Of a DNA stretch of 32,000 bases, positions 7,064 through 17,547 are shown piece by piece. The number at the start of each line of letters is the position of its first letter. The first letter of the stretch is position 1. The notes below the pieces were generated by a model. It saw only the letters and a program-made list of their open reading frames with translations. It did not search any database and was not told where the DNA came from. The position numbers and the translations under genes are program-made. The DNA comes from an archaeon (GTDB lineage: Archaea > Iainarchaeota > Iainarchaeia > Iainarchaeales > 1-14-0-10-31-34). The DNA lies in NCBI GenBank assembly GCA_024277355.1, contig JAJRVL010000002.1:72434-104433 (forward strand), read 5' to 3'.

Positions 7064-8011
7064 TCAGAAATCTTTTGAAGTTGGAAACCTCATTTTATTC
7101 ATTTTATTGATTTTTTCAATTCTTAATTGTTTTTGTCTTTTGCTCCATAAATTATTTATTTTTTCCATTAAAATTTTTTCATTTTTAATTCCTGTTTTTT
7201 CTAATTGTGCTAACACGTCAGCAGGATAATAATCCATGTTAACTAATTCACTTATTTTTATGCTGATTTCTTTTGAAACGGTTTTTGGTTTAATTTTAAT
7301 TTTTGTTTTGTTTCCAAAATAAAATCTTTTTCGCATTGCTTTTTCTTCTTTAGAAAATATTTCTAATCTGGTTGAAATAACATTTATTCCTGATAAAGAA
7401 ATGCTTACTTTTTTTTCAGCTAATTTTTTTTGAATTTCAATAAAAGCAGTTGGTTTTTTTGTGTTTTTTTGTTTGAATAATTCTACTGCAATTTTAATGT
7501 AATTTTTTGCAGGTATTTTGTATTTTATTTTAACTGAATTTCTTGCATATAATTTCCAAAGCTTGTTTTGTTTGTCTGCTGAAAAATATTTTTTTATTTG
7601 GTTTGGAATTGATTTTGAAATTAAATCAAAAAACCTTTTTTTTGGCATTATTTTGTTTTTTTTTCTTGTTTGTCTGTAAACAGAAAGTTTTGTCTGTCTT
7701 TTTGGTTTTTTTGGAGTTGTTCCTTTGTTTTCCCAGTAATTTTTAATTGCTATTTTGATTTCTCCGTGATGTAATTTTATTCCTTCTTTTATAAGTTTGT
7801 TTTTAATTGCATTAGCACTTAATTGTTGTTCAGTCATTTCTCCAATTTTTTTCATAGTTGTTTCATTAATTCTTTTAACTTTTGGTTTTATTTTAACTTC
7901 AGCAACCATGATTTTTTTGGTTTGTTGTATGCTAAAACTTGAATTAACTCTTGTTCTTTTGCTTAAGTGATTTTGTTTTAGCATTTTTTTTATTGGAACA
8001 GGTTTTTTCAT
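7064..8011 (-). CDS. Lys-rich multi-HTH DNA-binding protein, paralog family member 2
   Basis: 315 aa with several HTH-like units (LSANAIKNKLIKEGIKLHHGEIKIAIKNY; FIEIQKKLAEKKVSISLSGINVISTRL; YPADVLAQLEKTGIKNEKILMEKI). RFFDLISKSIPNQ..NKLWKLY is shared with the paralogs. It lies 5 nt upstream of member 1, so the two are probably co-transcribed. Confidence 0.5.
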   Translation of the reverse strand: MKKPVPIKKMLKQNHLSKRTRVNSSFSIQQTKKIMVAEVKIKPKVKRINETTMKKIGEMTEQQLSANAIKNKLIKEGIKLHHGEIKIAIKNYWENKGTTPKKPKRQTKLSVYRQTRKKNKIMPKKRFFDLISKSIPNQIKKYFSADKQNKLWKLYARNSVKIKYKIPAKNYIKIAVELFKQKNTKKPTAFIEIQKKLAEKKVSISLSGINVISTRLEIFSKEEKAMRKRFYFGNKTKIKIKPKTVSKEISIKISELVNMDYYPADVLAQLEKTGIKNEKILMEKINNLWSKRQKQLRIEKINKMNKMRFPTSKDF

Positions 8012-8097: not shown

Positions 8098-9195
8098 ATG
8101 AATGTTAATTCTTTGATTAATGATGCAGTAACTAAAATTAAAGGCAATGAAGGAAAGAAAAAAAACATTGCAGGAAAATTAACTGCAGTAAAAAAAACAA
8201 ATTTAAGTGAATTTAATTCAAAAGAATTATTTGAAGAAAACTTTTTTTTTGAAATTTCTCCTGCTGAATTAAACAATAAAATTGCCGGAACTGATTCAGG
8301 GTTTGTTGGAAAAAGAATGCATTCAGTTGATATTGTTTTAATTAAAACAGTTTCAGCAGTTTTTTCTTATCAAAAAAACAAATTAACTAAAGCAGAATAT
8401 TTTCCTTCTCCTACTGCTTTTCCTAAACCTTTTATTTCTTCTAATACTCTGGAAAATGATGAATTTCAGTCTAATCAGTCTTTAATGAGGTTAAAAGAAG
8501 AAATTTCTAATTCAATAGAAGTAATAGAAAAATTTAAGCCTGATTATTGTTTTTTGGATGGAAGTATTATTCCGCAGTATGCTGAAACAAAAAAAGATTC
8601 ACAGTTGTATTCAAATTATTCTAATTTAATTAAATTATTTCAAGAATTATATGAAACTGCAGAGCAAAACAAATGTAATTTAATTGCTACTGTGGAAGAT
8701 TCAAGGGGTTCAAGATTCAGGAGTATTTTGCAGAAAGAAATCTTAGAAAAAAATAAGTTAATTGAGTCAGATGCATTAAATTCTTTTTTTGATTCAAGTT
8801 TACTTGATTATTTGCTTTCAAAAAATGAAAGAAGTTTTTGTTTTAATTACACGTCATCCATAAAAGAGCATCCGATTTTAAAGGATTTTAATGAAAAATG
8901 GGCTTCAAGAATAAAAACTTTTTATTTAAAGCCTTCAATGCTTGACAGGCCTTTAAGAATTGAATTTCTTCATAACGGAAAAAATTTAACTGAATACTGT
9001 AATGAAATTGCTTCTGTTGTTTTGTCTTTGTCTTCTTTGCATAAAGAATATGCTTATCCTTCTGTTTTAATTGAAGCAGATTTAAGGGCAAGATTAAAAC
9101 CAAATGAAGTGGAAATTTTGTTTAATAAAATTCAGGATAAATTAGGAAGAGAAAATGCTTTTTTGGCTTTAAGGAGAAATTCAAGGCCGTTTTGA
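8098..9195 (+). CDS. nurA: NurA 5'-3' nuclease
   Basis: 365 aa. NurA-like acidic motifs: IAGTDSGFVG, CFLDGSIIPQY, ATVEDSRGSRF and YPSVLIEADLRARL. Confidence 0.75.
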   Translation: MNVNSLINDAVTKIKGNEGKKKNIAGKLTAVKKTNLSEFNSKELFEENFFFEISPAELNNKIAGTDSGFVGKRMHSVDIVLIKTVSAVFSYQKNKLTKAEYFPSPTAFPKPFISSNTLENDEFQSNQSLMRLKEEISNSIEVIEKFKPDYCFLDGSIIPQYAETKKDSQLYSNYSNLIKLFQELYETAEQNKCNLIATVEDSRGSRFRSILQKEILEKNKLIESDALNSFFDSSLLDYLLSKNERSFCFNYTSSIKEHPILKDFNEKWASRIKTFYLKPSMLDRPLRIEFLHNGKNLTEYCNEIASVVLSLSSLHKEYAYPSVLIEADLRARLKPNEVEILFNKIQDKLGRENAFLALRRNSRPF

Positions 9196-9244: not shown

Positions 9245-9916
9245 ATGGAAAAATTAAAAGTTAAAGCAGTTTTTTTTGATTTATGGAATACTTTGGCTTT
9301 TACTGATTCAAAAAAAGATTTATTCAGAGAAATGCAGGTTCGTTTTGGTTTAAATGAAATAACTCATTCTCAGTTTTTGCAGGGATGTGAAAGAGCAATA
9401 ATGTTAGAGGAATTTGAAACTTTAGAGCATTTATATTCAAAGTTGCTGAATTATTTTTCTGTTCCTTCAGGAGAAATTATGTTAGGGGACTTGGATTTTT
9501 TATGGAATTATACTTTAAAGAAAAACAAGTTTTATCCTGAAACAAAAAAAGTTTTAACTAAAACAAAAAAACATTTTAAGACTGCTTTAATTTCTAATTG
9601 CGAGAATTTTGGAGTTAAAGGGTTGTCTAATGGATTTGATTTTAAGGATTATTTTGATGAAATAATTCTGTCTTGTGATGTAAATTTATTAAAACCTAAT
9701 TCAAAAATTTTTCAGGTTCCTTTAAAAAAACTTAAAGTTAAACCTGAACAGGCAGTAATGATTGGTGATTCAATTCGAACTGACATGAAAGGCGCAAAAA
9801 GATCAGGATTAAAAACAATTTTAATTGACAGAAAACAAAGATTTAAAGGAAAAAAATTAGAGGTTGATGCTGTTATTTCTTCTTTAAATGAATTAGAAAA
9901 AGTAATTGAATTTTAA
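9245..9916 (+). CDS. HAD-superfamily hydrolase
   Basis: Motif I VFFDLWNTL, motif II ALISNC, motif IV MIGDSIRTDMKGAKRSGLKTILI. Confidence 0.75.
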   Translation: MEKLKVKAVFFDLWNTLAFTDSKKDLFREMQVRFGLNEITHSQFLQGCERAIMLEEFETLEHLYSKLLNYFSVPSGEIMLGDLDFLWNYTLKKNKFYPETKKVLTKTKKHFKTALISNCENFGVKGLSNGFDFKDYFDEIILSCDVNLLKPNSKIFQVPLKKLKVKPEQAVMIGDSIRTDMKGAKRSGLKTILIDRKQRFKGKKLEVDAVISSLNELEKVIEF

Positions 9917-9921
9917 TGAAT

Positions 9922-10572
9922 TTAATAAGAAGAATCTCTGGTTTCTCTTATAATCCAATCAACTGCCTTAAATCCGGTTAATTGCTGTCTTTCTCTTTTG
10001 CTTCCTAATGAAAAAGTTTTTGCGTCATGTTTGAATTCTGCTGCAATTTTTTTCCATATGTCTCTTGTAGAAAGCTTGTTGTTTTTTGTTAATTCAATTA
10101 TTCTGTTTTCAATCAGGTTATTTCTTATTTTTGTTTTTCCTTTAGCTGAAGTTATTTTTGGAATAGTTGTTTTAGGAGTGCTTATTGTAATTGAATTAGT
10201 GTTATATTCTTTTGCTTTAACTAAACCTGTTTCGTTTGCAATTCTTCTTAATGAAGCATAACTCATTCCATCAATTTTTTTTGAAACAGCAACTAAATTA
10301 AGTTTTCCTTTTTTTGATTCAATCCATAAAACATTAACTGCATTAACAATGTTTTCCGGAGAAATAATTTTAGCGTTTTTAACTGAATTTTTTGAATTAC
10401 TTTTTATTAATTCAAATGTTTTTAATTTAATTCTCCTTGGAATTGTTTTATTAAATGATCTAAAAAATTTAGGCAGAACATTTCGCCCCAAAACAACTTT
10501 TCTCGGTTTAAGCATTTTTTGTGTTCTTGCATTTCTTCTTCTTACAGTTAAATGAGCTCGATTTTTATTCAT
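9922..10572 (-). CDS. Lys/Arg-rich multi-HTH DNA-binding protein, paralog family member 3
   Basis: 216 aa. PKFFRSFNKTIPRRIKLKTFELIKSN aligns with the KFFxLIxKxIP block of members 1 and 2. HTH-like units include LVAVSKKIDGMSYASLRRIANETGL and NRIIELTKNNKLSTRDIWKKIA. Confidence 0.45.
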   Translation of the reverse strand: MNKNRAHLTVRRRNARTQKMLKPRKVVLGRNVLPKFFRSFNKTIPRRIKLKTFELIKSNSKNSVKNAKIISPENIVNAVNVLWIESKKGKLNLVAVSKKIDGMSYASLRRIANETGLVKAKEYNTNSITISTPKTTIPKITSAKGKTKIRNNLIENRIIELTKNNKLSTRDIWKKIAAEFKHDAKTFSLGSKRERQQLTGFKAVDWIIRETRDSSY

Positions 10573-10615: not shown

Positions 10616-10658
10616 TACACTGAAAACCTTTAAATAACTTATAATCATTTTTTTGTTT

Positions 10659-12194
<1,536 letters not shown>

Positions 12195-12219: not shown

Positions 12220-12801
12220 ATGCTAAGAAAACTTTGGAGAAAAACCCGAAAACCTTTTGTTAAAACTGTTCAGGGATTAAAAAAAGTTGAAGGTGGAAAA
12301 GAAAGAAGAAAAAAGTTAGCTGATTCTTTAAAACATGCAAGAAAAATAGATAAATGTATTAAAATTTCAAGATGGGGTCGTTTTGGAGAATCTTTTTTAG
12401 AACGTGATAAAAAAATTCTTCTTTCAAGAATTAATAATTTGCTTAATCGTGAAAAACAAGTTAAGGTAGTTAAAATTTTAGATTTAGGTTCTGGTTCAGG
12501 CGTTTATTGGGATAAACTTGTACAGGGAAACCCCAGACTTAAGAGGAAACTTAAAGTTGTTTGTATTAACCCTACAAGAACTCTTTTCAGAGAAACTGAA
12601 GTAAAAAGTCTTGTTTTAGGAAATCTTTTAACAATGAATAAAGCAAGATTTAAAAAATTTCTAAAAGAAAAAGGAAAATTTAATTTGGTTATTTCTTCTG
12701 CAGGCTCTTATCATTACAGTTTTGAAAAAGAATTATTTGATAGAAGAATAATGGATGTTTTAATTGAAAAAAAAGAATCTAATTTTTTGCTTTTAACTTA
12801 A
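12220..12801 (+). CDS. hypothetical protein with basic N-terminus and possible SAM-methyltransferase fold
   Basis: 193 aa. Only motif I-like KILDLGSGSGVYW is recognisable. Lies 25 nt downstream of herA on the same strand. Confidence 0.4.
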   Translation: MLRKLWRKTRKPFVKTVQGLKKVEGGKERRKKLADSLKHARKIDKCIKISRWGRFGESFLERDKKILLSRINNLLNREKQVKVVKILDLGSGSGVYWDKLVQGNPRLKRKLKVVCINPTRTLFRETEVKSLVLGNLLTMNKARFKKFLKEKGKFNLVISSAGSYHYSFEKELFDRRIMDVLIEKKESNFLLLT

Positions 12802-13053
12802 TCAAAAACCTAATTTTTTTAGTTTTGCACTTGGATCATCATTAATATATTCTTCTAATGCTTTTTCTAATTCATCTTCTTTTTCAAAACTTAATCCTTT
12901 TTTTGTTTTACCGCTTAATTCTTCAATTCTTAATCTTACTGCATCTCTTACTGCTTCAGTCCTTGAAGCATAAAAACCATTTTTAACTAATTTGTCAATT
13001 TTTTCAATGTCTTTTTTTGAAAAATTAATTAACACAGAAATTTTTGAATTCAT
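12802..13053 (-). CDS. ribbon-helix-helix (CopG/Arc/MetJ) DNA-binding protein
   Basis: Beta-strand plus two helices: KISVLINFSKKDIEKIDKLVKNGFYASRTEAVRDAVRLRIEEL. The track start at 13068 is TTG; ATG 13053 (MNSKISV) is preferred. Confidence 0.6.
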   Translation of the reverse strand: MNSKISVLINFSKKDIEKIDKLVKNGFYASRTEAVRDAVRLRIEELSGKTKKGLSFEKEDELEKALEEYINDDPSAKLKKLGF

Positions 13054-13132
13054 AATACTAAAACACAATTAAACTTAATAAATATATACTAAAATACATT
13101 ATTTATATATTATTTATATATTTGTTGCTTTC

Positions 13133-13190: not shown

Positions 13191-14672
13191 ATGCCTTTAA
13201 CTTCCAATACCTTTTATTTATCCAATGCGGAATATGTTGAAAAAAAGAAAAGAGTTTCAGTTGAATTCTCTAACTTAAATGAAACAAGAAGAATTTCTTT
13301 TCCTTTTATTCCTTATATTATTCTTCATAAAAGTTTGCTGGACAAATCTTTTTTTGATTTCCTGAAAAAAAAGAAACTTAAAACCGAAAAAATAACTAAT
13401 GGCTTTAAAGTTTTTTCAAGTGATTTTTCTTTTTTAGAAAAAGTGAATTCTTTTTTTGAAAAAAAAGGGATTTTACTTCCTTCTGAAACACAGTTTTTGT
13501 TATTAAAGAACTGGAGTTTTTTTGATGGATTTGAATTAAATGAAAATAATGAATTTGAAAAAAAAGGTTTTATTGAATTCCCTGAATTAAAACCTGAGTT
13601 CAGCTATAATTCCTTAAAAGAAAATGTTTCTGAAATGCTTTCTTTTTCTGATACTTCCGGAAAAAACTTTTTAAATAAAATTATTCTTTCAAATGTTTTA
13701 TGTTTAAAGCTGAATTATCTTAATGTTTCTAAATCGTCAATGCTTGATTCTTTTATTGAATTAATTTTATTTAGAAATAATTTTGCTTTTAATAAATCAA
13801 AACCAAAATTTGATTCAGGTTTTATTAAAAAATATTCAGGGAAATTAAAGGAAATTGATTTTTCTTTTGTCTGGCCTGTTTTGTTTTCTTTTCCTTTTCA
13901 TAATTTAGGTTTTGATTCAGTTAATTGTTCCTGCTGTAAGCCGAAAGAATTTAATGAAAGAAATATTCTTCCTTCTTCTTTGATTGAAGTTAAATTCAAT
14001 GAAGATGCCATTTATTTTGAATCATCTAATACTGACTGGAGTTCTTTTTTCCATGAAAAGGCTTTAGGAAAAGAAAAAAGAATTAAAAGAATGAATGAAT
14101 GGCGTTTAAGAAACATTCCTTCAGGTCCTTTTTTCAGAAATGATGTTTTAAGAATTCCTTTAAATGATGCATTAAAACTAAAAGAAGAAGAAAAAATAGT
14201 TTTCTTAAATGATCATAATTTAGTTTGGAGCTGTACTAAAAAAGAATGTTTTATTTCAAAAGAATTAACTGAATTAAACAAAAAAACAGTTTTGTTTGAT
14301 AAAAAAATAAATGAATTGGAATCCGGTTCAATTAAAGATAATGGAATTGCTTTTTCTTTGTTTCTGGAAAAAAATCCTGAATTTCATTTTTTCTCTGAAT
14401 ATAAAAATGTATTAAAAACAATTTTTTCTTCTGTTCCTTTTCATTTATCTTCTCATTCTTCTGCATTTTTTGATTTTGTTCTTTCAAATTCAATTAAATC
14501 TGTTTTTTCTTCGGTTTTAACTAAATTCAGGGAATTTTCAGTGTCTAATTCAAGTCCTTCTTTTATTACAAAAAAAGGTGTGTTAGTTGATTCTGATAAT
14601 CCTCTTGATTTGCTTACTGAATTCTCTAAAAACCAGAATATTCCTGTTCCAGAGCTTTCTATAAAGAATTAA
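13191..14672 (+). CDS. hypothetical protein; candidate miniaturised, degenerate family-B DNA polymerase homolog
   Basis: Ordered resemblance to archaeal PolB as recalled for Pfu. N-terminus [27 protein letters not shown] vs ILDVDYITEEGKPVIRLF..FRPYIYAL. Motif A [29 protein letters not shown] vs [43 protein letters not shown] vs RWYCKECAESVT. Most of the exonuclease domain is absent, and motifs B and C are degenerate. Start moved to ATG 13191; the TTG-started extension covers promoter-like sequence. Confidence 0.4.
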   Translation: [493 protein letters not shown]

Positions 14673-15169: not shown

Positions 15170-16936
15170 TTAATTAATTGAATTTTCTTTTGGAATTGAA
15201 CTGCCTTCGTTTTCTTTGTCTCTTTCTATTTCATAATAACTTCCTGAAGCAGCTTTTTCCATTTCAGAATCATGAGTTATTATAAAAATCTGGTCAACTA
15301 AAGAAGGAAGATGTTCTTTCATCATTTTACTTAATTTTGCTGTTGCATTTTTATCTAAATTATGTGTTGGTTCATCTAAAATTAACCAGCTTAAATTCTG
15401 AGTTAATACAAGAGAAAAAGCAACTCTGATGCAGATTGCTGCAGCACTTCTTTCTCCTCCTGAAAGAATTCCTTCAACCCTGATCCATTTTCCATTTTTT
15501 TCTTTTACTTTTATTTCGTAATTTCCTTCTTCTATTTCCATTTTAGCTGAAGTAAAATCGCCGTAAGGATAAATTTTATTCCATACGTCATCCATTGCTT
15601 CATTTATTGTGTCAATCATTTCTTTTCTTAATTCTGCCTGAGTTGCATTTAAGGCATTGTTAAATAATGCTAATTCAGATAAAATTTTTTCATGTAATTC
15701 AGTTTCTTTTTTTAATTCATTAATTCTGTTTTCTTCTTTTTCTATTTTTTCAATGTTTAATTTAATGCTTTCAATTAATTCAGCAGTATTTTTGATTTCT
15801 TTTTCAGAGAATTCAACTGAAGATTTAACTGAATAAACAATTTCTTTTTTTTTGCTGAAAGCATTTTCTATATAGCCAAGTGTTTCTTTTTTTTCTGTTA
15901 ATTCTGATAACTCTTTTTTCCAGTTTTTGGATTTAAAAAATTCTTTTATTAATTCAATTTCCTGTTCAATTTTTTTTATTTCGTTTTCTTTTGTTTGTAT
16001 TTTTTCTTCGTTTACTTCTTTTTCCAGTTTTTCTTTTAATAAATTGCTTTCATTCAATTTTTCTTTTATTAATTCAATTTGTTTTTGTGTTTCTTTTATT
16101 TCATTTAATCTTTCTGTTAAACCTTTAATTTTGTTTTTTTCTTCTTCAAGTGAAAAAACTTTGTTTTCTAATATTGTTTTGGTTTTTTTTATTTCTTTGA
16201 TTTCCAGCATGGTTTTTCTTTCATCTTCTGTTAAACCTTTGTTTATTATTCCTATTTTTTCTTCTTCTTTTTCATAAGAGTTAATTAATTCAATTTTTTT
16301 TTCCTGACTTAATTTTGTTGAACAAACAGGACAGTCTGATTCTGATTTAGTTAATTTTTTTATGTTTTCTTCTAATTCAGCAACTCTTTTTTCGTTAACT
16401 AAAATTCCGTTTTTTGTTTCAAAAACTTCTTTTTCAAGTTCTTCAATTCTTTTTTCTTTTGCTTTTTTTTCTTCCTGTATTTCTTTTATTTTTTTTTCTG
16501 TTTCTTCTTGTTTTTCTTTTATTTTTTCTTCTGAGTTAATTCCTGAAAGAAGTTCGGTTTTTCGGTTTTTTTCTTTTTCAAGAAATTCTTTTTTTTCGTT
16601 TTCTGCTTTTATTCCTGCTTTAATTGCAGAAAGTTCTCTTAATTTTGTTTCTATTTCGTTTTTTTCTTTTTTTAATTCAATTAATTTATTTTCTTCGTTT
16701 TCTGGTTCTTTGTTTTCAATGTCTTTTCCTTTTATTTTTTTTTCTGTTTCTGATATTTTTGTTTCAAGTTTAATTTCTTTTTCTTTTATTTCTTTGAATT
16801 CTTTTTCTTTTTTTTCCAGTATTTCTAATTCAGTTGCGTGTTGTTTTAATTCGTTTTTTTCTTTCTCTATTTTTTCCTGTGTTTCTTTTAGTTGTTTTTC
16901 TTTTTCTTCTTTTTTTGGTTTAATTCTTTTAATGCT
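15170..16936 (-). CDS. rad50: Rad50 continuation in the -1 frame: coiled coil, CPVC zinc hook, ABC signature, Walker B, H-loop
   Basis: I checked triplet by triplet that this frame is open from 16936 to the track ORF 15170..16210. It has no Met upstream of 16210, so the track truncates it. Zinc hook SESDCPVCS has CPVC at 16322..16333. Also LSGGERSAAAICIRVAF, WLILDEPTHNLD and FIITHD. Confidence 0.85.
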   Translation of the reverse strand, partial: SIKRIKPKKEEKEKQLKETQEKIEKEKNELKQHATELEILEKKEKEFKEIKEKEIKLETKISETEKKIKGKDIENKEPENEENKLIELKKEKNEIETKLRELSAIKAGIKAENEKKEFLEKEKNRKTELLSGINSEEKIKEKQEETEKKIKEIQEEKKAKEKRIEELEKEVFETKNGILVNEKRVAELEENIKKLTKSESDCPVCSTKLSQEKKIELINSYEKEEEKIGIINKGLTEDERKTMLEIKEIKKTKTILENKVFSLEEEKNKIKGLTERLNEIKETQKQIELIKEKLNESNLLKEKLEKEVNEEKIQTKENEIKKIEQEIELIKEFFKSKNWKKELSELTEKKETLGYIENAFSKKKEIVYSVKSSVEFSEKEIKNTAELIESIKLNIEKIEKEENRINELKKETELHEKILSELALFNNALNATQAELRKEMIDTINEAMDDVWNKIYPYGDFTSAKMEIEEGNYEIKVKEKNGKWIRVEGILSGGERSAAAICIRVAFSLVLTQNLSWLILDEPTHNLDKNATAKLSKMMKEHLPSLVDQIFIITHDSEMEKAASGSYYEIERDKENEGSSIPKENSIN

Positions 16937-17547
16937 TTATCATCAAATGAATCAGAATGTTTTTTGATTAAGTCTTTTTTGTCTTCATTTATTTTTTTTA
17001 TTCTGTTTATTACTGAAATATTTGTTTTTCTTGCGTTTTCGTATTTGTCTAACTCTAAAATTTCATCAAACTTTTTTTTTCTTTGCATTGGACTTAATTT
17101 TAAAAAAAAGTCAATTTGGTTTTGTTCTGAATAAACAGCTCTTGAAAATAAATCGTAATTCATTTCAAGTATTTCTTCTATTTTTTCGTTTACGTCGTTT
17201 GGTTTTGGTCCTGCAATTAATTTTCCTTCTTCTAATATTTTTGCCTGATTAGAGTTTTTTCCTGCAAAAACTGTTCTTTTAATTAAATAATTTTTGTTGT
17301 TGTAGTCAAATTCTAATTCAACTTTTGATTCATCCATTTGATTAGGTTTATTCATTATTATTTCATTTAAGCTTACGGATTTAGAATTTAATGCAGGATA
17401 AGTGCCGAATAAAGCATAACACATGGCTTCAATTACTGTGCTTTTTCCTGCTCCAATTATTCCGGTTAATACATTAGTTCCTTTATTAAACTGAAATTCT
17501 GTTTCTTTATGGCTTTTCCAGTTAAACAATTTTACTTTTTTAATCAT
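16888..17547 (-). CDS. rad50: Rad50 N-terminal segment (Walker A lobe and start of coiled coil); the 0 frame stops 7 codons after an A7 run
   Basis: MIKKVKLFNWKSHKETEFQFNKGTNVLTGIIGAGKSTVIEAMCYALFG, plus the Q-loop region YSEQNQID. Ends ..LNQKKKKKKNN* at 16888. Confidence 0.85.
   Translation of the reverse strand: MIKKVKLFNWKSHKETEFQFNKGTNVLTGIIGAGKSTVIEAMCYALFGTYPALNSKSVSLNEIIMNKPNQMDESKVELEFDYNNKNYLIKRTVFAGKNSNQAKILEEGKLIAGPKPNDVNEKIEEILEMNYDLFSRAVYSEQNQIDFFLKLSPMQRKKKFDEILELDKYENARKTNISVINRIKKINEDKKDLIKKHSDSFDDKALKELNQKKKKKKNN

Follow-up and report, generated by a model that had tools for sequence, protein, structure and literature searches.

A degenerate family B DNA polymerase paralogue encoded between herA and rad50 in Iainarchaeota

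Introduction

What protein do Iainarchaeota encode between the genes for HerA and Rad50, and is it still a polymerase? The question is raised by a 32,000-nucleotide stretch of an Iainarchaeal contig (JAJRVL010000002.1, positions 72,434 to 104,433 of the forward strand; assembly GCA_024277355.1), here called the window. An intact open reading frame (ORF) at 13191-14672 on the + strand, with its ATG at 13191 and a TAA at 14670-14672, specifies a protein of 493 amino acids (aa), protein X, which is identical to the NCBI product P0001 (493 aa). A previous reading of the window, made from the letters of the DNA without database searches (the sequence-only reading), had proposed that this is a miniaturised, degenerate family B DNA polymerase (PolB). 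Structure search and profile-profile comparison agree on the same answer: protein X is derived from a PolB, and is both miniaturised and degenerate. From its translation, its homologues, an AlphaFold2 (AF2) model, Foldseek and HHalign, gene X (13191..14672, +) can be annotated as a putatively inactivated PolB paralogue that lacks exonuclease and thumb.

Relationship to family B DNA polymerases

The AF2 model of protein X, built on 16 sequences, is confident (predicted local distance difference test, pLDDT, 86.2; predicted template modelling score, pTM, 0.85). A Foldseek comparison with the PDB gave 136 matches at E<=1e-3. PolBs fill the first 50 places, with E-values from 9e-8 to 4e-6, a probability of 1.0 and TM-scores of 0.41-0.52 on the query. 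The PDB matches include the polymerases of P. abyssi, KOD, Tgo and P. calidifontis, E. coli Pol II, Pol epsilon and the enzyme of African swine fever virus (ASFV). The same model yielded 23 matches at E<=1e-3 in BFVD, where every named match is a DNA polymerase, namely a viral PolB. The structural comparison suggested along with the sequence-only reading (an AlphaFold model searched with Foldseek) thus recovers the PolB fold in both libraries, with E-values of ~1e-7 at best.

Profile comparison leads to the same place. A profile of the X family (101 members) was aligned by HHalign with a profile of 104 DPANN and 5 Thermococcales PolBs, giving a probability of 99.1% and an E-value of 1.2e-18 over 237 columns. 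The main block pairs X 151-490 with residues 313-576 of Pfu PolB (query sequence 100% identical to P0168), and the first 150 residues give an alignment of their own, collinear with it (X 9-114 with Pfu 1-132, P 7e-4). Against a single genuine Iainarchaeal PolB the X family still scores a probability of 95% (E 3.8e-8). This polymerase was found in a genome scan (801 aa, locus L074, 8639-11041, +) and reads ...VLDFKSYHPSIVISHNIGPDTVNCSCCPGKDFCEQKKS... in part. A hidden Markov model (HMM) of the family, run with hmmsearch against individual DPANN PolBs, scored as high as 67 bits; the match falls into three collinear pieces, one of which joins model positions 1-130 to PolB 1-147 (independent E-value 2e-6). 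The composition of the PolB profile matters: one made from Thermococcales sequences only is too narrow (effective number of sequences, Neff, 1.5), gave 19.6% and a global alignment that is partly wrong, and HHalign became decisive only once the DPANN PolBs had joined. Protein X and the DPANN PolBs have in common the motifs HNxGP[DE]TxNCxCC and WFCxKKxxF, which, as far as motifs can tell, argues for a local origin of X.

The core of the sequence-only reading is therefore borne out by Foldseek and by HHalign (E 1.2e-18); the kind of profile search that it had suggested finds collinear PolB segments (99.1%). Several of its pairings also hold. The N-terminal matches that it had drawn by eye (FIPYIILH with FRPYIYAL, and a segment set against ILDVDYITEEG...) fall within X 9-114 and Pfu 1-132, and its pairing of motif A with that of Pfu is upheld by HHalign.

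None of this is visible to standard family models. Protein X has no match in Pfam or NCBIfam at E<=10, and 16 members of its family have none at E<=1; PADLOC likewise gave nothing, and the thresholds of PF00136 and PF03104 and of the NCBIfam models pol2 and PRK05761-2 are not reached. Searches of the PDB sequences with the single protein (phmmer) or the family profile (hmmsearch) returned noise only. Unlike protein X, the genuine Iainarchaeal PolB reaches 284 bits on TIGR00592.

Distribution and conservation of the family

A word-indexed search found 19 homologues of ~490-540 aa, each annotated as 'hypothetical'. When all 1.84 billion representatives (50% identity) were searched with a profile, the number rose to 178 at E<=1e-3, the longest being 546 aa among the 150 matches listed of these 178. 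When one genome per GTDB species was scanned with the family alignment (A1), 70 loci were obtained, 68 of which encode X; the other two are short motif matches to genuine PolBs. All 68 belong to Iainarchaeota/Diapherotrites or to archaeal metagenome-assembled genomes (MAGs), and the closed genome CP010424.1 is among them. The X family was found only in Iainarchaeota (Diapherotrites). Its ORF has been kept intact across ~70 species-level genomes at 25-70% identity, which points to selection.

Conservation was counted over 101 full-length members. Invariant are C246, C248, C249, C348, G312 and F102; near-invariant are P41, R297 and P313 (each 100/101), D326 and W346 (each 99/101) and H288 (95/101). 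No description of the family was found in Pfam, NCBIfam, PADLOC or the searchable literature, in keeping with the earlier remark that such a protein would be new as far as known.

Protein X appears to be an addition to the replicative polymerase of its host. The MAG ADurb.Bin336 holds both a full-length PolB (P0347/P0348) and X (locus L050), so that X is an extra paralogue and not the replicase.

Domain organization and losses

Protein X begins with a PolB N-terminal domain (aa 1-114; 13191..13532, +), recognised by HHalign and hmmsearch and marked by conserved Y15, F26, F39, P41, PERQFL at 98-103 and W108. A short, acidic and variable linker follows between the two HHalign blocks (aa 115-150; 13533..13640, +; median net charge -3), standing in for Pfu ~133-312. 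The next part (aa 151-249; 13641..13937, +) aligns with Pfu 313-437 and comprises the second piece of the N-terminal domain and the first palm segment; it holds a degenerate motif A (D223-F-S..W228-P; EIDFSFVWP) and the sequence HNxG..NCxCC. After an insertion discussed below, W346-x-C348-xKKESF and two finger helices (aa 344-425; 14220..14465, +) correspond to Pfu 438-505, and a second palm segment from which motif C has disappeared (aa 426-493; 14466..14669, +) to Pfu 506-576.

Two parts of a PolB are missing from this order. No equivalents of Exo I or Exo II were detected in protein X, as Pfu ~133-312 has no counterpart in the two-block HHalign alignment. Neither has the thumb: the protein ends at residue 493, equivalent to Pfu ~576-579, and the Pfu thumb spans ~589-775. 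These limits follow the domain boundaries of the Pfu and Tgo structures. Judged by alignment and model, protein X has lost the exonuclease core and the whole thumb and has kept N-terminal domain, palm and fingers. The sequence-only reading had noted that about 180 aa of the exonuclease domain are missing, which fits the replacement of Pfu 133-312 by X 115-150; it had called the thumb much reduced, where it is absent outright, and had placed GFIEFPEL at Exo I, a region that proves unaligned and variable.

The active-site motifs have fared no better. The motif A aspartate, D223, is D in 75 of 101 members, N in 15 and S in 4, and it differs even within the clade of at least 60% identity to the window protein (N in P0008, S in P0009). 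In place of the steric-gate Tyr of motif A (DxxSLYPS in active PolBs), 56 of the 101 have W, 15 have L and 8 have V. Motif B (KxxxNSxYG) would lie at X ~405-417, a variable stretch without NSxYG in which the Lys position, X409, is K in 17/101. The DTD of motif C aligns by HHalign to K461-K462, which are variable positions as well. A DSD at 467-469 lies downstream of the motif C register, with D467 being D in 21/101 and D469 in 26/101; it was considered as a surviving motif C and rejected, since it is out of register and carried by only about a quarter of the family. Taken at face value, the alignments indicate that the polymerase active site is lost, motifs B and C being gone and the motif A aspartate dispensable, and protein X is most likely non-catalytic. 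Because catalytic residues are unconserved among the 101 orthologues and exonuclease and thumb are missing, an inactivated derivative is favoured over an unusual minimal polymerase. These were the two options left by the sequence-only reading, which had also pointed to an orthologue alignment of the acidic residues as informative; the catalytic ones turn out to be unconserved, and it is the option of an inactivated derivative with a structural or regulatory role that gains. Three of its finer placements need correction: KIVFLNDHN, read as motif B, falls within the family-specific insertion; VLFDKK, read as the motif C position, gives way to X 461-462 (KK); and VWSCTKKE, set against RWYC506KEC, pairs instead with Pfu H439-KFC442-KD and the DPANN 'WFCxKKKGF'.

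The cysteine knuckle and the inserted domain

Conservation in the family is concentrated on a Cys cluster and on an insertion, the latter being its best-conserved part. Three of the four invariant Cys form C246-x-C248-C249 (13926..13937, +; 101/101), a putative Zn site, to which C348, also invariant in all 101, adds the fourth. At the same palm position genuine DPANN PolBs carry either C-x-H-x2-C-(~10 residues)-WFC-xKKKGF or CxCC...C. The four Cys of protein X are probably a structural Zn site. Since DPANN PolBs share the knuckle position, X has kept the Cys knuckle of its parent and grown a domain of ~94 aa within its loop.

The polymerase motif deserves a note of its own. C-x-H-x2-C...WFC was seen in the PolBs of Iainarchaeota, Micrarchaeota and Woesearchaeota (P0288-P0407 and the L074 enzyme), some of which have CxCC...C, and it has the look of a probable Zn knuckle. 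We found no discussion of this DPANN Cys/His knuckle. Thermococcales PolBs have a Cys pair at the position, presumably the C428-C442 disulfide.

The inserted domain (aa 250-343; 13938..14219, +) has no counterpart in the PolB profile, and had escaped the sequence-only reading. Its near-invariant residues are P251, N258, S263, H288, R297, G312-P313 and D326. Modelled alone it is predicted by AF2 with a pLDDT of 91.8 as beta-beta-alpha-alpha-beta-beta-alpha-beta. Across 1.18 Mb of loci an HMM of the insertion picked out X proteins and nothing else, and in PolBs its matches were confined to the flanking Cys motif. Foldseek returned weak matches only, mostly GINS subunits or the Gins51 B-domain, with a best E of 0.26 and none at 1e-3; the match to 5ghr_B has a probability of 0.98 and a TM-score on the target of 0.70 but, at E 0.26, is not significant. 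The likeness of the predicted fold to GINS is therefore treated as a lead only. That the insertion is a recognisable nuclease or a borrowed domain was considered and rejected, no homologue being present in neighbouring ORFs or in PolBs.

Genomic context

The window has ~27% G+C and carries archaeal housekeeping genes (PTH2, ELP3, aRF1, ABCE1, a CCA-adding enzyme and TYW3). The sequence-only reading had placed gene X in a repair island between herA and rad50; Pfam confirms both neighbours, and the setting is conserved throughout the phylum. Upstream of X lie nurA, a nuclease gene whose upstream position is conserved (8098..9195, +; PF09376, E 2e-11), and herA, for a HerA/DUF87 translocase (10653..12194, +; PF01935, E 8e-31) whose best NCBIfam matches are the HerA models of double-strand break (DSB) repair. 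Just downstream follow rpoK and rps17e, identified by eye in the window and by Pfam on the syntenic genes, and then rad50 (15170..17547, -), convergent with X and encoding ~790 aa with a CPVC Zn hook, with Pfam AAA_23, SMC_N and SbcC_Walker_B falling on its two halves. The order nurA(+) ... herA(+), X(+), rpoK and rps17e, rad50(-), EF-1beta(-), CCA-adding enzyme(-) recurs in ~65 of 68 informative loci. In ~60 loci herA is upstream of X on the same strand, with a gap of 44-132 nt in 22 of 64 and of at most 300 nt in 28 of 64.

The one clear exception is L064, the sole locus in which herA and rad50 do not flank X: nurA lies on the opposite strand, 8 kb upstream, herA is 8 kb downstream, and the cluster appears rearranged. 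Three-frame translation shows that a single frameshift, within an A-rich run at ~16890-16936, divides the rad50 of the window into two ORFs; the rad50 genes of relatives are single ORFs of 679-795 aa. Either the assembly or the sequencing may have erred at the homopolymer, or the frameshift may be real.

Between nurA and herA sits a HAD-IA phosphatase (9245..9916, +; PF13419, PF00702), and at least 35 loci have one at this spot. The models closest to it (TIGR02253, YjjG and phosphoglycolate-phosphatase-like ones) are all matched at scores under their thresholds. The enzyme might belong to the cluster as a further conserved component that, for example, cleans 3'-phosphate or phosphoglycolate ends. 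The space between herA and X is occupied in the window by two further genes. A weak methyltransferase-like ORF (12220-12801, +) was seen in the window and in L005 only. A small antisense ribbon-helix-helix gene, CdrS/ParD-like (12802-13068, -), is confined to the close clade of the window (L002, L005-L007, L009 and L067). The two give the X gene of the window an AT-rich upstream region of its own.

Absence of Mre11 from the cluster

The canonical order of the archaeal operon is herA-mre11-rad50-nurA, and X occupies the place directly after herA. Pfu Mre11, a query confirmed by a 769-bit match to 3DSC, was run with phmmer over 3203 ORFs in 1.18 Mb, and no Mre11-like ORF emerged at E<=10. The sequence searched consisted of the window and 74 loci, of which 70 came from the genome scan and reach at most 10 kb to either side of X. 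In none of the loci examined does rad50 have an adjacent mre11, and the Metallophos models of Pfam have no match on any window ORF tested, protein X included. As the search covered these neighbourhoods, its empty result means that the cluster and its surroundings contain no mre11, and specifically none next to rad50. To our knowledge, a rad50 without mre11 beside it is unusual for archaea.

Two Lys-rich ORFs that neighbour nurA and herA in the window (7064-8011, -, 315 aa; 9922-10572, -, 216 aa) were considered as Mre11 and set aside, being neither Mre11-like nor conserved in other loci. They have no family match and no counterpart in related loci, and may be lineage-specific or not real genes.

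Possible roles of protein X

The reading that we put forward, and think about equally apt to be right or wrong, is that protein X is a non-catalytic PolB paralogue serving as a DNA-binding or scaffold subunit of DSB end processing by HerA-NurA, possibly together with Rad50. Its ancestor would be the replicative-type PolB of the lineage itself, from which the exonuclease core, the thumb and the active site were lost. The N-terminal domain, palm and fingers would have been retained as a folded scaffold, and the ~94-aa domain gained inside the Cys knuckle. The PolB cradle may hold a DNA end or a junction of single strand and duplex, and the inserted domain may dock onto a partner protein. A parallel, by analogy, would be Pol epsilon, whose dead PolB module anchors the enzyme to a hexameric helicase. 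In favour of such a role stand the position of gene X downstream of herA within the phylum-wide cluster, the short herA-X gap in many loci and the match of HerA to the DSB-repair models. Four observations weigh against it. The charges of the domains are unremarkable, and charge and pI are uninformative on DNA binding. Other small genes lie between herA and X in over half of the loci. The insertion's invariant Arg and near-invariant Asp and His could form an active site of an unrecognised kind. The main caveat concerns the synteny, which on its own is weaker evidence than it appears: the region is collinear across the phylum, including the unrelated rpoK, rps17e, EF-1beta and CCA-adding enzyme genes, so that the conserved order could reflect a low rate of rearrangement.

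The same collinearity bears on another role, in which X would work in replication or its regulation, as a dead-polymerase scaffold that binds the replisome through a GINS-B-like insertion and has merely inherited its place near herA. The flanking non-repair genes are indeed equally syntenic, matches to GINS and the Gins51 B-domain recur in Foldseek (E 0.26), and there are precedents in the inactive module of Pol epsilon (PMC7544198) and in proposals for archaeal PolB2 (PMC4104785). We regard this as unlikely, given that no GINS match reaches E<=1e-3, that the neighbourhood contains no replication genes, and that X stands tightly beside herA on the same strand in many loci. Its place after herA, which mre11 holds canonically, raises the question of whether X has taken over from Mre11 as the Rad50 partner or end-processing factor of Iainarchaeota, be it as a pure scaffold or with a new active site in the insertion. 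The empty search of 1.18 Mb and a rad50 with no neighbouring mre11 speak for it; X is moreover the sole uncharacterised conserved member of the cluster, and its insertion has R297 (100/101), D326 (99/101, the remaining two having E) and H288 (95/101). Yet Mre11 could be encoded elsewhere in the genome, protein X has neither the phosphoesterase fold nor its motifs, a typical metal-dependent nuclease would need more than a single conserved acidic residue, and rad50 is convergent, separated by rpoK and rps17e, and not co-transcribed with X. A replacement of Mre11 is accordingly a doubtful proposition.

Two further explanations concern the nature of the protein rather than its partners. X might still be active, as a minimal polymerase or a translesion enzyme filling gaps during recombination, at least in the window's clade with D223 and D467-S-D469. 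In the window protein the motif A Asp survives and a DSD is nearby, archaeal PolB2/Dpo2 was once called inactive and yet S. solfataricus Dpo2 was reported to be weakly active (PMC4104785), and primer-independent PolBs function with a single motif C Asp (PMC7544198). We find this very unlikely: two members of the close clade lack the motif A Asp (P0008 has N, P0009 has S), the DSD is off the motif C position, the triphosphate-binding residues of motif B are absent, there is no thumb to hold a duplex, and conservation sits on the Cys cluster and the insertion and not on the active site. Finally, the resemblance to PolB might be a chance or compositional artefact of an unrelated, low-GC fold rich in Lys, Phe and Ser, as the lack of matches in Pfam, NCBIfam, PADLOC and PDB sequences and the 19.6% of the Thermococcales-only HHalign run would allow. 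This is scarcely credible when a diverse PolB profile gives E 1.2e-18, two independent Foldseek libraries return PolBs (the PDB top 50 and all named BFVD matches), three collinear segments stand in the right order, and lineage-specific motifs are common to X and the Iainarchaeal PolB.

Comparison with known polymerases and partners

The closest relatives of protein X are the replicative-type PolBs of DPANN and Euryarchaeota (PolB3-like; the L074 PolB and Pfu Pol, P0168). With them it shares the arrangement of homologous N-terminal domain, palm and fingers, the place of a Cys/His knuckle in the palm, and a set of motifs (PERQFL, resembling IPFxxRYL; LSxL...E; DFxxxxP, a degenerate motif A; HNxGP[DE]TxNC; WFCxKKxxF). 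It differs in being ~300 aa shorter, with exonuclease core and thumb deleted and motifs B and C lost, in the unconserved motif A Asp, in the ~94-aa insertion within the Cys knuckle, and in escaping PF00136 and PF03104. For most archaeal PolB3 genes the neighbourhood is not conserved (PMC4104785), whereas X is encoded next to herA.

Inactivation of a PolB is not unique to this lineage. Archaeal PolB2, or Dpo2, has been described as an 'inactivated' family B polymerase (Rogozin 2008; Makarova 2014; PMC4104785), linked to inactivated RadA paralogues and arCOG07300, with a proposed role in repair or in the regulation of replication (PMC4104785); for S. solfataricus Dpo2 weak polymerase and exonuclease activities have been reported (PMC4104785). 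Like PolB2, X is an archaeal PolB paralogue with disrupted polymerase and exonuclease catalytic residues, its gene cluster has ties to DNA damage or repair, and it is predicted to be part of a complex. Unlike PolB2, its neighbours are NurA, HAD, HerA, RpoK, S17e and Rad50, with no RadA-like gene seen; it was found only in Iainarchaeota and has lineage-specific motifs in common with DPANN PolBs. The lack of a thumb and the inserted domain set it further apart from PolB2 as described, a distinction drawn from description and context.

In Pol epsilon the C-terminal inactive PolB module (Pol2-C) is a replisome scaffold that contacts the hexameric CMG (PMC7544198). As in that case, X may be a dead PolB kept as a structural element beside a ring-shaped hexameric DNA motor, a likeness that would be one of function by analogy. 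Pol2-C is eukaryotic, fused to an active polymerase and marked by other deletions, whereas X is a separate protein; moreover, Pol2-C has no known link to HerA, NurA or Rad50. X therefore differs from both PolB2 and the Pol epsilon module in architecture, distribution and partners. Poxvirus F12 is reported to be another example of a dead polymerase (PMC4304020). With Mre11, X has in common the slot directly downstream of herA and a cluster with nurA and rad50, but it has a PolB fold instead of a calcineurin-like phosphoesterase and carries no phosphoesterase motifs.

Significance

Dead polymerases kept as structural parts are rare and show how replication and repair machines evolve. X is an extreme example, in which exonuclease and thumb are gone, a new domain has been inserted and standard family models see nothing. 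It is also a natural experiment, as the parent PolB coexists with it (shown in ADurb.Bin336) and lineage-specific motifs are still shared. Its context is specific: X stands beside herA and nurA and convergent with rad50 in ~65 genomes, where mre11 is not in its usual place. For annotation, the assignment reaches ~180 clusters of 'hypothetical protein'. For the biology of the phylum, it raises the question of how genome-reduced DPANN archaea resect DNA ends, and whether Rad50 and HerA-NurA might work there with a partner other than Mre11. In its boldest form, which we consider quite improbable, Iainarchaeota would have exchanged Mre11 in the Rad50/HerA/NurA machinery for an exapted dead PolB, whose Cys-stapled insertion would provide partner binding or end processing.

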